Part shown: positions 7,151-51,514 of the stretch, in pieces | Position numbering within the stretch: position 1 is the first letter of the stretch | How the letters are laid out: each line of letters starts with the position of its first letter | Origin: an uncultured Clostridium sp. | GTDB lineage: Bacteria > Bacillota > Clostridia > TANB77 > CAG-508 | Reading direction: 5' to 3' | Length of the DNA stretch: 64,000 nt | Assembly: GCA_964456505.1 (NCBI GenBank) | Contig: CAYWAH010000002.1 | Span: 7-64,006 of the forward strand | Position numbers and translations under genes: made by a program | Notes under the pieces: model-generated | What the model saw: the letters and a program-made list of their open reading frames with translations, nothing else | Told to the model about the DNA's origin: nothing | The model's database searches: none

Positions 7151-9109
7151 ATGAAGGACAGCAAAAAGTATAAAAAGGCAAAAACAAAAAATGAAAAATC
7201 AAAAGTATGGGGCCTATTATTGATTTTAATAATAGGTTTTTTAGTAGGTGTTTTTGCATATACAAATTTTACAGAACCTGCAGTAGTTGTTCGCAAATAC
7301 TTTAAATATTTGAATGAAAAAAATTACGATGCGATGTACGATTTAGTTGATACAAAATTGTCAAAAGAAGAATTTGTTAACAGAGTAAAAAATATTTATG
7401 ATGGAATTGAAGCCAAAAATATTTCTGCGATTATTACAACAAATTCTTATAACAAAAATGAGAACAACGAAACCACAATTAGTTTCACAAATAAAATGGA
7501 CACCATTGCTGGAACATTAAGTTTTAATAGTAGTGCAAAGGTAATAAGTGATGGAGAAAAATATAAAATTTCTTGGTCATCAAAAATGATTTATCCAGAT
7601 CTTGATGATGATGAAAAAGTGAGAGTGAACACCTTATATGCTAAGAGAGGTGTGATATATGATAGAAATAAAAAAGCAATTGCCAAAAATGGGGAAGTGT
7701 ATTCAATTGGAATAATTCCTGGAAAGATGGATTCAACTACAGATTTGAATAAGGTTGCAACTCTTGTTGAATCAGATTTAAATACTGTTGAGAAAAAATT
7801 GAAAGCTGACGGAGTTACCCAAAATACCTTTGTTGAAGTCGGAAAAATAACAAAGGACAAGCAGGACGAAAAACTTGAACTTTTGAAAATCAAAGGTGTG
7901 ATGATAAATGAAATTTCTGCAAGAGTGTATCCATTTAATGAAGCCACTTCAATAATGACAGGATATGTGCAAGACGGAGAAGGAAAAACAGGAATAGAGC
8001 AAGAGTACAATGAAAAATTAAAAGGGCAAAATGGCTTTGAAATTTACATCGAGAAAAACGATGTTAAGCAAAAATCAATTTTGAAAAAAGAGCAAAAAGA
8101 TGGACAAGATTTATATTTGACAATTGACACTGATTTGCAACAGAAAATTTATGATGAGTTTAAAGATAATAAAAGTGCAGTAGTTTCAATGAATTATAAT
8201 ACTGGCGAAATTCTCGCATTAGTAAGCACACCATCTTATAATGCAAATGATTTTAGTATGGGAATAAGCGAAGAAAAATGGAATCAAATTCAGAGTAATG
8301 AAAAAAATCCTTTGTACAATAGGTATCTTTCTGGAACGTATGCACCAGGATCAACCTTAAAACCTATAATTGGTGCGATTGGCTTAATGACAAATAGTTT
8401 TACAGCGAGTGATGATTTTGGAAAGAGTGAAAAGAAATGGCAGAAAGATGAAAAATGGGGAGACTTTTATGTGTCAACATTGGAGCAATACAACGAGACA
8501 GCTAACTTGGAAAATGCTTTAGTATATTCAGACAATATCTATTTTGCAAAAGCATCATTGAAAATTGGAAAGCAGAATTTACAAAACTATTTGGAAAAAT
8601 TTGGATTTAATAAAGACTTGAATTTCATTGGAAATATGTCAAAATCTACGTATGGAAATTTGGCAAGTGAAAAGGAAATTGCTCAGGCTGGATTTGGACA
8701 AGGAGAGGTGCTTGTAAATCCATTGCATATGGCAAGTTTATATTCAATGTTTGCCAACAATGGAAATATGATAAAACCACATATTGAGTTAAATGAAAAA
8801 GAAACTGAATTTTATTTACAAAATGCTATTACAACTCAAATTGCAAATGAAATAAAAAAAGATTTGATTCAAGTAGTTGAAAGAGGAACCGGAAAAAATG
8901 CAAAAATTGAGGGCAAAACAATTGCAGGAAAAACCGGAACTGCTGAGATAAAAAATTCGCAAGATGATGAGAATGGAACTGAAAATGGTTGGTTTGATGT
9001 ATTTGATGATAGCGAAAAATTGTATGTGGCAATGGTGGAAGATGTAAAGGACGCAAACGGAAGCCACTATGTTGTAAATAAAATGAAAAATATTCTTGAG
9101 AGTGAGTAG
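7151..9109 (+). CDS. Class B penicillin-binding protein (transpeptidase) with an NTF2/MecA_N-like N-terminal domain
   Basis: SxxK (GSTLKP), SxN (YSDN) and KTG (GKTGTAE) motifs, with an N-terminal TM. Confidence 0.85.
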   Translation: MKDSKKYKKAKTKNEKSKVWGLLLILIIGFLVGVFAYTNFTEPAVVVRKYFKYLNEKNYDAMYDLVDTKLSKEEFVNRVKNIYDGIEAKNISAIITTNSYNKNENNETTISFTNKMDTIAGTLSFNSSAKVISDGEKYKISWSSKMIYPDLDDDEKVRVNTLYAKRGVIYDRNKKAIAKNGEVYSIGIIPGKMDSTTDLNKVATLVESDLNTVEKKLKADGVTQNTFVEVGKITKDKQDEKLELLKIKGVMINEISARVYPFNEATSIMTGYVQDGEGKTGIEQEYNEKLKGQNGFEIYIEKNDVKQKSILKKEQKDGQDLYLTIDTDLQQKIYDEFKDNKSAVVSMNYNTGEILALVSTPSYNANDFSMGISEEKWNQIQSNEKNPLYNRYLSGTYAPGSTLKPIIGAIGLMTNSFTASDDFGKSEKKWQKDEKWGDFYVSTLEQYNETANLENALVYSDNIYFAKASLKIGKQNLQNYLEKFGFNKDLNFIGNMSKSTYGNLASEKEIAQAGFGQGEVLVNPLHMASLYSMFANNGNMIKPHIELNEKETEFYLQNAITTQIANEIKKDLIQVVERGTGKNAKIEGKTIAGKTGTAEIKNSQDDENGTENGWFDVFDDSEKLYVAMVEDVKDANGSHYVVNKMKNILESE

Positions 9110-50380: not shown

Positions 50381-51019
50381 ATGAATAAAAAAGAAGCGGA
50401 AAACATTACAATTAAATTAATAAAAAATTATCCTGAAGCAAAATGTAGTTTGGACTTTTCCACGCCATTTCAAATGCTGGTAGCAGTTTGCCTTTCAGCA
50501 CAATGCACAGATGAAAGAGTTAATCAAGTTACCAAAACTCTCTTTAAAAGATATTCAACACCAGAAGATTTTGCGAATGCAAATGTTGAAGACATTGAAA
50601 AATTAATTTACTCATGTGGGTTTTACAAAAACAAGGCACGTAATTTAGTAAATGCAGGAAAGAAAGTTTGCGAGGATTATAATGGAATTGTTCCGGACAA
50701 CATGGAAGAATTAATGAAAATACCTGGAGTAGGAAGAAAAAGTGCTAATGTAATTATGCTAGAGGCATTTAACAAACCACAAGGAATTGCAGTTGACACA
50801 CATGTAAAAAGAATTTCAAAAAGAATAGGATTTTCAAATGAAAAAGAACCAGAAAAAATCGAGCAAGACTTATTAAAAGAAATTCCAAAAAAATATTGGA
50901 AAGATGTTAATCATGTATTTATTTATCATGGAAGAAATACATGCAAATCACAAAATCCACAATGCGAGAATTGCGTTATAAAAGATTGCTGTAATTATTA
51001 TACAAATTTAAAAAAATAA
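50381..51019 (+). CDS. nth: Endonuclease III
   Basis: HhH-GPD (LMKIPGVGRKSANVI), DTHV, and the C-terminal 4Fe-4S cysteines C-X6-C-X2-C-X5-C. Confidence 0.9.
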   Translation: MNKKEAENITIKLIKNYPEAKCSLDFSTPFQMLVAVCLSAQCTDERVNQVTKTLFKRYSTPEDFANANVEDIEKLIYSCGFYKNKARNLVNAGKKVCEDYNGIVPDNMEELMKIPGVGRKSANVIMLEAFNKPQGIAVDTHVKRISKRIGFSNEKEPEKIEQDLLKEIPKKYWKDVNHVFIYHGRNTCKSQNPQCENCVIKDCCNYYTNLKK

Positions 51020-51048
51020 TATATTAAACTTGATAAAAGAGAAAAAAA

Positions 51049-51078
51049 CATTGAAGCCAATTGCTTCAATGCTTTTTT
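51049..51078. terminator. Bidirectional terminator
   Basis: cattgaagc-caatt-gcttcaatg stem flanked by an A-run and T6. Confidence 0.75.
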
Positions 51079-51079
51079 A

Positions 51080-51196
51080 CTAGAATATTCCGTTGCCATT
51101 TCCGCAACAGCAGAAAAGCAATAAAAGAATTATTATTAAAGAACAACAGCTATTGTTATTATTGTTGTCTTTATTACAACATTTATCAGGCATCAT
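51080..51196 (-). CDS. Cys/Asn-rich single-TM mini-protein, 38 aa (YjcZ-like tiny sporulation peptide candidate)
   Basis: Hand translation gives MMPDKCCNKDNNNNNSCCSLIIILLLLFCCCGNGNGIF. SD aaggaga lies 7 nt upstream and a terminator follows directly. It is below the 60-aa cutoff of the ORF track. Confidence 0.6.
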   Translation of the reverse strand: MMPDKCCNKDNNNNNSCCSLIIILLLLFCCCGNGNGIF

Positions 51197-51242
51197 AATA
51201 ATATCTCCTTTCAAATATTTAAATATTCAAATTAGTATAGAA

Positions 51243-51377
51243 CTAATTATTGAAGCATGGTGGCTTAGGTCCTGGGTTACAACAACAATCATCATTATTG
51301 TTAGAACCACCACAACAACTGCAAAGAAGCAAAATTATTAAGATGAACCAGATACAGTTACAATTTGAGCCTCTCAT
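51243..51377 (-). CDS. Cys/Asn-rich single-TM mini-protein, 44 aa (YjcZ-like candidate)
   Basis: Hand translation gives MRGSNCNCIWFILIILLLCSCCGGSNNNDDCCCNPGPKPPCFNN. SD aaggagg lies 6 nt upstream. It is below the ORF-track cutoff. Confidence 0.6.
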   Translation of the reverse strand: MRGSNCNCIWFILIILLLCSCCGGSNNNDDCCCNPGPKPPCFNN

Positions 51378-51418
51378 TTGATACCTCCTTATAAAATATT
51401 CATTTCTTTTGTATGCTA

Positions 51419-51445
51419 TATATTATGAAAAATATTTTGATTTGT
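51419..51445 (-). promoter_or_regulatory. sigma-K-like promoter match (AC-16-CATAATATA)
   Basis: The reverse complement of 51419-51427 is CATAATATA, and AC lies at 51445-51444, ~33 nt upstream of the 51377 ATG. Confidence 0.35.
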
Positions 51446-51514
51446 TACTGTTGCCAATTTATTATTGTTGTGGTATTATATTAGGGAATTAACAATATAA
51501 AATGTGAGGATAAA

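Follow-up and report, generated by a model that had tools for sequence, protein, structure and literature searches.

In a 64,000-nucleotide stretch of DNA from an uncultured Clostridium sp. (positions 7 to 64,006 of contig CAYWAH010000002.1, assembly GCA_964456505.1; referred to here as the window), we identified two short minus-strand genes, pepA and pepB, whose products are probably small components of the spore envelope. The pair appears to constitute a two-gene operon that combines a sigma-K-type promoter of its own with a terminator and a strong ribosome-binding site for each gene, and it would yield two paralogous micro-peptides of ~40 amino acids (aa), each with a single short and very hydrophobic helix, Cys clusters on both sides of that helix, and Gly/Asn-rich tails. 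We arrive at a spore envelope component because of the sigma-K-type promoter and because no member of the peptide family was detected in any searched genome lacking sporulation genes, and we hold this overall explanation of the operon with moderate confidence. The features of the locus are as follows.

51243..51377, minus strand: pepA, 44 aa with 9 Cys, translation MRGSNCNCIWFILIILLLCSCCGGSNNNDDCCCNPGPKPPCFNN; the N-tail is short (MRGSNCNC), the aliphatic core has 10 residues (IWFILIILLL), and the C-tail is rich in Cys/Asn/Pro
51080..51196, minus strand: pepB, 38 aa with 7 Cys, translation MMPDKCCNKDNNNNNSCCSLIIILLLLFCCCGNGNGIF; an N-tail rich in Asn/Cys, a 9-residue aliphatic core (LIIILLLLF), and the tail CCCGNGNGIF
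51384..51390, minus strand: Shine-Dalgarno (SD) sequence of pepA, AAGGAGG, 6 nt before the ATG
51210-51204, minus strand: SD of pepB, AAGGAGA, 7 nt before the ATG
51197..51242, minus strand: pepA-pepB spacer of 46 nt, holding the pepB SD and having no separate conserved promoter
51419..51448, minus strand: putative sigma-K-type promoter, with the -35 GTAAC at 51448-51444 (core AC at 51445-51444), a 16-nt spacer, and the -10 CATAATATA at 51427-51419
51405..51415, minus strand: CATAC(A/T)AAAGA block, just 3' of the -10, kept in all same-genus upstream alignments
51042..51078, both strands: bidirectional intrinsic terminator, 9-16 bp stem with T-runs flanking it on each strand
51093..51341, plus strand: spurious antisense open reading frame (ORF) of 82 aa, TTG start, low complexity, not a gene
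50381-51019: nth, convergent with pepA-pepB

Both genes are almost certainly real coding genes under purifying selection, judging from the way in which their sequences have diverged. A six-frame search of 60 relatives recovered open-frame homologues of pepA, and 17 same-genus loci have retained the tandem arrangement of pepA and pepB, each gene being preceded by AGGAGG, which for pepA lies at the same spacing in every relative. In codon alignments, the single-nucleotide codon differences were 1297 synonymous vs 513 non-synonymous for pepA and 1026 vs 513 for pepB, while all of the other sense and antisense frames over the pair gave an opposite or weaker ratio. Pairwise differences were likewise concentrated at third rather than second codon positions, both in pepA (2372 vs 788) and in pepB (1869 vs 772). 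In the antisense frames, non-synonymous changes were in excess and the longest open stretch over the pair varied from 22 to 73 aa among relatives, with a shifting frame. The 82-aa plus-strand ORF, which is the sole ORF of ≥80 aa at the locus, is therefore spurious and not conserved. The initial annotation had already dismissed it in favor of the two minus-strand ORFs and had staked this proposal upon conservation of their reading frames; these are indeed open in the 17 same-genus loci, with mainly synonymous substitutions. The coordinates and translations of both ORFs given there were borne out, as were the near-perfect SDs and the shared downstream terminator, whose hairpin and T-run proved to be bidirectional and common to the pepA-pepB unit and the convergent nth gene. 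Its count of nine cysteines for pepA was right as well, but pepB contains seven rather than the claimed eleven.

It could be argued that the mini-ORFs are simply chance frames in AT-rich DNA and that the true product is the plus-strand ORF or nothing, as this low-complexity genome of 28% GC does contain 81 Cys-rich mini-ORFs before any SD filter is applied. However, in the whole 1.17 Mb genome there are just five SD-led ATG-ORFs of 20-100 aa with ≥10% Cys, namely pepA, pepB, one SCIFF-type peptide, and two junk-like sequences, and the pair stands beyond chance because it accounts for two of only five. Terminator-like sites are also in excess at the locus (2 found vs 0.1 expected in shuffles). 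With purifying selection that is specific to the two frames, conserved SDs, promoter, and terminator, and homologues in many taxonomic families, we give a chance origin almost no credence; the codon-substitution pattern and the lack of conservation of the antisense ORF are what rule it out.

The spacer between the two genes ranges from 25 to 87 nt in relatives, with an AGGAGG-type SD at the end of each. In the loci L008, L009, L013, L017, and L019, the pepA stop codon is immediately followed, still ahead of the pepB SD, by a conserved AT-rich inverted repeat (AATTATC...GATAATT), possibly an RNA hairpin by which the ratio of the two products or the stability of the transcript is tuned. In the window, the corresponding site holds a weak palindrome, aatatttaaatatt, at 51228-51215.

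We next consider the promoter. The initial annotation had pointed to a sigma-K-type match upstream of pepA, and AC-N16-CATAATATA is indeed present there and conserved both within the genus and afar; it is this conservation that gives the match its weight, because in a single sequence such a match is at chance level. Upstream of pepA, the 17 same-genus loci share GTAAC(C/A)AA, ~15 nt, (G)(A/C)ATAnTATATA, and then the CATAC(A/T)AAAGA block, which is probably the transcription start and 5' leader. For the distant comparison, 11 independent loci with unrelated flanks and a GC content of 0.26-0.54 were searched up to a distance of 115 nt from the first gene. The pattern AC-N16/17-[CA]ATAnnnT[AG], whose T[AG] ending is a post hoc relaxation, occurred in 9 of these loci vs 2.5% of background windows; shuffles gave a mean of 0.36 loci, and none of 2000 reached 9. 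The strict CATAnnnT[AG] form was present in 6 of the 11 vs 1.3% of the background. Among the fused forms of the pair described below, two were examined, and one of these (P0023) carries a canonical AC-N16-CATAAGATA upstream. In Clostridioides difficile, sigma-E and sigma-K promoters have a common -10 and differ in the -35, ATA being that of sigma-E and AC that of sigma-K, and the cotJB2-cotD operon is sigma-K-dependent (PMC3789822). By its sequence, the pepA-pepB promoter would be of the mother-cell type with a sigma-K-like -35, and we consider it likely that the pair is expressed from it in connection with sporulation.

A stricter form of the motif also precedes several other genes of the host genome (G000), including a cotJA operon (PF11007), a YlmC/YmxH sporulation gene, a gene for a peptidoglycan-binding protein, and a gene for a Cys-rich membrane protein. 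TAAC-N15-18-(C/A)ATAnTATA is found before the cotJA-cotJB-cotJC-like operon (G000:C15 from ~7583), before the YlmC/YmxH gene just downstream of sigG, and before the gene for the 226-aa PG_binding_1 protein; these sites all lie outside the window and are listed together as G000:C15 from ~7583, C8 from ~1401, and C4 from ~36141. The three are candidates for a small late mother-cell regulon of this lineage. The Cys-rich membrane protein (G000:C44:3510-3746, minus strand, outside the window) has 78 aa, begins with MNGRNSNCCCGGCYNLCC followed by a hydrophobic region of ~55 residues, and matches nothing in Pfam or NCBIfam. Before it stands TAACAAAATGATTTTAATTGCATAATATA, the same promoter type as that of pepA, and the protein may be another Cys-capped sporulation membrane protein.

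The phyletic distribution of the pair points in the same direction as its promoter, in agreement with the sporulation link originally proposed: it is co-absent with sporulation genes within the genus and co-occurs with SpoIVA across the class. The host belongs to the uncultured Clostridia of the gut; its genome has 1.17 Mb, 28% GC, and 99.6% completeness, and the named relatives are metagenome-assembled genomes (MAGs) of uncultured Clostridia from mouse and rabbit gut. It encodes Spo0A, SigH, SigF, SigG, SigK, and an intact SpoIVA, and therefore sporulation is part of the biology of this lineage. A pepB profile matched 28 of 37 genus genomes at E≤1e-8. Four genomes of the genus (G013, G016, G017, and G019) have no SpoIVA and only the housekeeping sigma factor, and the pair was found in none of these vs 28 of the 33 sporulators (Fisher P=0.002), although this P value overstates the support because the four asporogenous genomes probably represent only about two independent co-losses. 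In a tree of tyrosyl-tRNA synthetase (TyrRS), G017 and G019 are sisters, G016 falls with them and the sporulator G011 in a clade whose branching is not resolved, and G013, which has a different TyrRS type, could not be placed. The five sporulators that lack the pair are all MAGs of <90% completeness; among the genomes of ≥90% completeness, 14 have both the pair and sporulation genes, 2 have neither, and none is discordant (P=0.008). At the class level, all 13 genomes with a module match also have a SpoIVA match vs 117 of 150 overall (P=0.034), in a test of low sensitivity, as the profile detects the family in just 13 of the 117 sporulators. The family is thus not universal among sporulators.

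The genomes of G013, G016, G017, and G019 measure 0.9-1.7 Mb and have lost every sporulation sigma factor, which implies at least one or two losses of sporulation within one genus of reduced-genome gut Clostridia. In addition, G013, G020, and G028 of the same genus have no orthologous TyrRS and only a 30-33% identical type, which is present as a second copy in G009 and G022, so that an aminoacyl-tRNA synthetase replacement within the genus is possible.

Sequence comparison places pepA and pepB in an uncurated, Clostridia-wide peptide family with the module (G/D)NDC-x-W-IIILLLL-CCCCGGN-G, in which a polar G/N/D stretch ending in Cys is followed by a core of 9-12 Ile/Leu residues, usually with Trp first, then by CCC(C)GG(N) and a G/N/C tail. 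Both peptides align with modules from other taxonomic families, and profiles that were built from the genus only, before the wider set had been seen, recovered the distant members P0012-P0017 and P0018-P0033. Some of these are single peptides of ~38 aa, and the others (P0017, P0018, P0019, P0022, and P0023) are two-module fusion proteins of 65-74 aa. An alignment of the pepA and pepB profiles by hhalign gave a probability of 93.7% over the core. Six-frame searches of 150 genomes of the class returned more pairs and one triple in other taxonomic families, the latter being L053 (G130:C9, ~40616), where three consecutive family genes of 42, 51, and 55 aa lie behind one TAACA-N-CATATTATA promoter; copy number in the family is flexible, as this triple illustrates. 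The organization is thus tandem at the 17 same-genus loci and paired, triple, or fused farther away, and the existence of fusions makes joint action of the two peptides most likely. Neither peptide has a match in Pfam or NCBIfam at E≤10, and eight wider family members gave no relevant match in either library. In a collection of 5.8 billion proteins, pepA and pepB themselves were not found, and 8-17 relatives had been called as genes, none with a Pfam domain (the alignment from the pepB search is headed by a 44-aa form with a TTG start). Some bacterial members carry the NCBI name 'chorion class high-cysteine HCB protein 13', for example P0023, a 70-aa protein of a Lachnospiraceae MAG. It contains the same module twice, as NDxGC-WIIILLLL-CCCGGN and then GDNGC-IIWIILIL-CCCCGGGN, and corresponds to a fused form of the pair, differing from pepA and pepB in being a single polypeptide rather than two genes. 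The name is an automatic mislabel that goes back to eggshell proteins of insects and says nothing about function. In the published literature, as far as it is searchable, no description of the family was found, and a review from 2023 on the small proteins of Gram-positive bacteria has just SpoVM, CmpA, and the small acid-soluble spore proteins as its sporulation entries.

AlphaFold2 predicts one helix in each peptide, spanning residues 6-20 of pepA and 14-30 of pepB, at a predicted local distance difference test (pLDDT) score of ~80; the rest of pepA and the tails of pepB are disordered, and the mean pLDDT is 61-64 for both. Across the family, the aliphatic core measures 9-12 residues, or 12-15 if the flanking Cys are counted, the Cys content is 14-28%, and several members are without any Lys or Arg. 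A lipoprotein was considered and rejected. The lipobox [LVI][ASTVI][GAS]C is absent, since neither pepA (LLLCSCC) nor its relatives (LLCCCGC) have G/A/S at -1 together with an allowed residue at -2, and the sole weak match in the profile searches was lipo_LytA, at E=0.54 and far under its cut-off. Synteny is not conserved. In the window the pair lies between an HD-domain gene and nth, at 13 of 18 loci it is divergent from an adjoining gene that we take to be mutL-like from its N-terminal ATPase motif, the downstream neighbors vary, and the fused forms have purine, chorismate, and protease genes as neighbors. Apart from this mutL-like gene, the surroundings of the pair revealed no conserved partner, whether a maturase, an exporter or other transporter, or a redox enzyme. 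A search of the locus against Rfam returned only a meaningless CrcZ match (E=0.14).

Several observations weigh against a sporulation-linked envelope role. The pattern AC-N16/17-CATAnnnTA occurs 117 times in the 28% GC host genome vs ~107 expected, and hence there is no genome-wide enrichment. Two of the 11 distant loci are without the motif, the second fused form that was examined combines a good -10 with a non-AC -35, and, with sigma-E and sigma-K having the same -10, the assignment to sigma-K is one of motif similarity. Furthermore, the host sigE gene (G000:C1:~8010-8800, outside the window) carries two frameshifts that split it, one close to an A-run of the pro-sequence region and the other due to an extra base in region 4, leaving a best open frame of 189 aa (274 bits), while sigE is intact in 13 same-genus and several same-order relatives (243-252 aa, 342-378 bits). 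The frameshifts are either an assembly error or a sign of recent decay and loss of sporulation, and if they are real, this strain may no longer sporulate. The sister sporulators G002 (72% complete) and G031 (76%) both lack the pair, which may be dispensable. As for the peptides, a standard membrane-spanning helix would have a longer core, and there are hardly any topogenic charges, which makes 'transmembrane' a hypothetical description; the predicted helix could equally drive hydrophobic self-assembly.

Peptides of this kind might also serve other functions. They could act as metallothionein-like thiolate binders and handle Zn, Cu, or Fe in late sporulation, by storage, buffering, or delivery, with no structural cross-linking. 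The CC, CxC, and CGC motifs at 18-28% Cys do recall metallothionein spacing, and the sporulation-type promoter and phyletic link would fit such a function equally well. We nevertheless regard it as unlikely, given that soluble metallothioneins have nothing that corresponds to the invariant aliphatic core and that no metal transporter or chaperone is conserved beside the pair. Quite unlikely, in our estimation, are membrane-perturbing peptides, either holin-like ones that permeabilize the mother cell late in sporulation or addiction modules resembling type I toxins. A length of ~40 aa with one strongly hydrophobic helix is also seen in the type I toxins of Clostridia, and late mother-cell timing would suit mother-cell lysis, but the tails of known type I toxins and holins are charged and pepA and pepB are nearly uncharged, Cys clusters are not a holin trait, and neither a conserved antisense promoter or RNA nor an Rfam match was seen at the locus. 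Stable inheritance beside the mutL-like gene in 13 of the 18 loci and purifying selection argue in the same direction. A precursor of a ribosomally synthesized and post-translationally modified peptide (RiPP), such as a sactipeptide, ranthipeptide, or lanthipeptide-like bacteriocin, would likewise be short and Cys-rich and could be encoded as tandem duplicates, as in multi-precursor RiPP loci, and Clostridia are rich in Cys-based RiPPs. The host itself encodes one candidate elsewhere, a 51-aa peptide with six cysteines (G000:C32:9285-9440, minus strand, outside the window; MKHVKTLTGDVLTETVKTGGCGECKTSCQSACKTSCTVGNQHCENSHKRHI), which by eye we take to be a precursor of the SCIFF ranthipeptide type. 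SCIFF peptides resemble pepA and pepB as Cys-rich clostridial peptides of ~45-50 aa, but they have no hydrophobic core and require an adjacent radical-SAM maturase, and the pair has no conserved enzyme neighbor. Since no maturase, exporter, or redox enzyme accompanies the pair, with no radical-SAM enzyme, cyclase, protease, or ABC exporter conserved beside it and with neighbors that vary by genome (nth and the HD-domain gene here, mutL in most), and since there is no leader/core organization and fused two-module forms exist, a RiPP locus seems very unlikely.

The initial annotation had suggested yet another identity, namely the YjcZ family of bacilli and clostridia (TIGR01732, 'tiny_TM_bacill'). 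The general look is indeed alike, as YjcZ proteins are tiny, with a single hydrophobic core and Gly-rich ends, and pepA and pepB, at 44 and 38 aa, are both under 60 aa with one predicted hydrophobic helix each. B. subtilis yjcZ has also been assigned to the sigma-K regulon (PMC517825), which would imply the same promoter type as at this locus. However, neither peptide has a TIGR01732, NCBIfam, or Pfam match at E≤10, and the eight wider family members did not match TIGR01732 either. The profile search suggested at the outset was empty across a six-frame translation of the whole genome, even though a B. subtilis control scored above the curated cut-off of 21.35 bits, and TIGR01732 matched a single one of 150 genomes across the class and no genome from the order of the host. 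The Cys clusters and the NDC and CCCGGN motifs lie outside that model and are absent from YjcZ, and the pepA/pepB family further differs in that its members typically come as heterotypic genes in tandem or as a fusion of two modules. We therefore reject the YjcZ identity on the grounds of the missing match to this hidden Markov model and the motifs that it does not contain: pepA and pepB are not YjcZ proteins, and even a divergent membership of this family is decidedly unlikely.

For the spore-envelope role that we favor, the closest parallels would be functional rather than ancestral. CdeC and CdeM of C. difficile and CotY, CotZ, and ExsY of Bacillus are Cys-rich spore-surface proteins, made late in the mother cell and disulfide-linked in the outer spore layers. 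They differ from pepA and pepB in being much larger, soluble, and without an aliphatic helix, and pepA and pepB have no sequence similarity to them and no Pfam or NCBIfam match that would connect them. By analogy, pepA and pepB may resemble these coat and exosporium proteins in what they do and not in where they come from. The eukaryotic CYSTM proteins (PF12734) are also very short, with a hydrophobic segment packed with or flanked by Cys, but they are specific to eukaryotes and have Cys within the helix, whereas the Cys of pepA and pepB flank a pure Ile/Leu core; there was no Pfam match to CYSTM for either peptide. A precedent for size and timing exists in B. subtilis, where the mother-cell peptides SpoVM and CmpA, of ≤40 aa, act at the forespore surface or the basement layer of the coat and are often unannotated (PMC10730256). 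They are alike in being tiny mother-cell sporulation peptides that annotation routinely misses, and there is no homology: SpoVM is sigma-E-dependent, amphipathic, and without Cys clusters.

We suggest that the two peptides would be made late in the mother cell and would assemble into the spore envelope. There, their dense thiols could form intermolecular disulfide or metal-thiolate links that add to it, although this structural, thiol-linked role is a tentative proposal by analogy. The initial annotation had likewise raised metal binding or disulfide cross-linking, and such a role is plausible. A more speculative extension, to which we assign a low probability, is that the family represents an unrecognized, widespread class of sigma-K-driven micro-proteins whose paired helices build an oxygen-triggered thiol sheet in the spores of anaerobic spore-formers. 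Two complementary short hydrophobic helices, on separate peptides or in a fusion, would pair at the inner coat or the outer forespore membrane, with thiol clusters on both faces that would be held reduced in the anaerobic mother cell. Once the spore met oxygen outside the host, a disulfide-linked or metal-bridged hydrophobic sheet would lock, giving anaerobic spore-formers a layer, specific to them, for hardening or for sacrificial antioxidant protection. Such peptides could have been missed by gene callers for being too short and by tryptic proteomics for having almost no Lys or Arg, of which there are 0-3.

Independent of its exact role, pepA-pepB illustrates how gene callers and curated profile libraries overlook low-complexity micro-proteins, with spurious antisense ORFs annotated in their place. 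Here, a conserved peptide family that is systematically unannotated has been retained in a 1.17 Mb genome that shed much else. Most anaerobic gut Firmicutes move from host to host as spores, and the spore envelopes of uncultured Clostridia are almost uncharacterized. If the spore-envelope interpretation is true, the thiol-dense hydrophobic micro-peptide would be a new building block in spore biology, and the family would also offer an easy way to mark late-sporulation promoters in the genomes of uncultured lineages.

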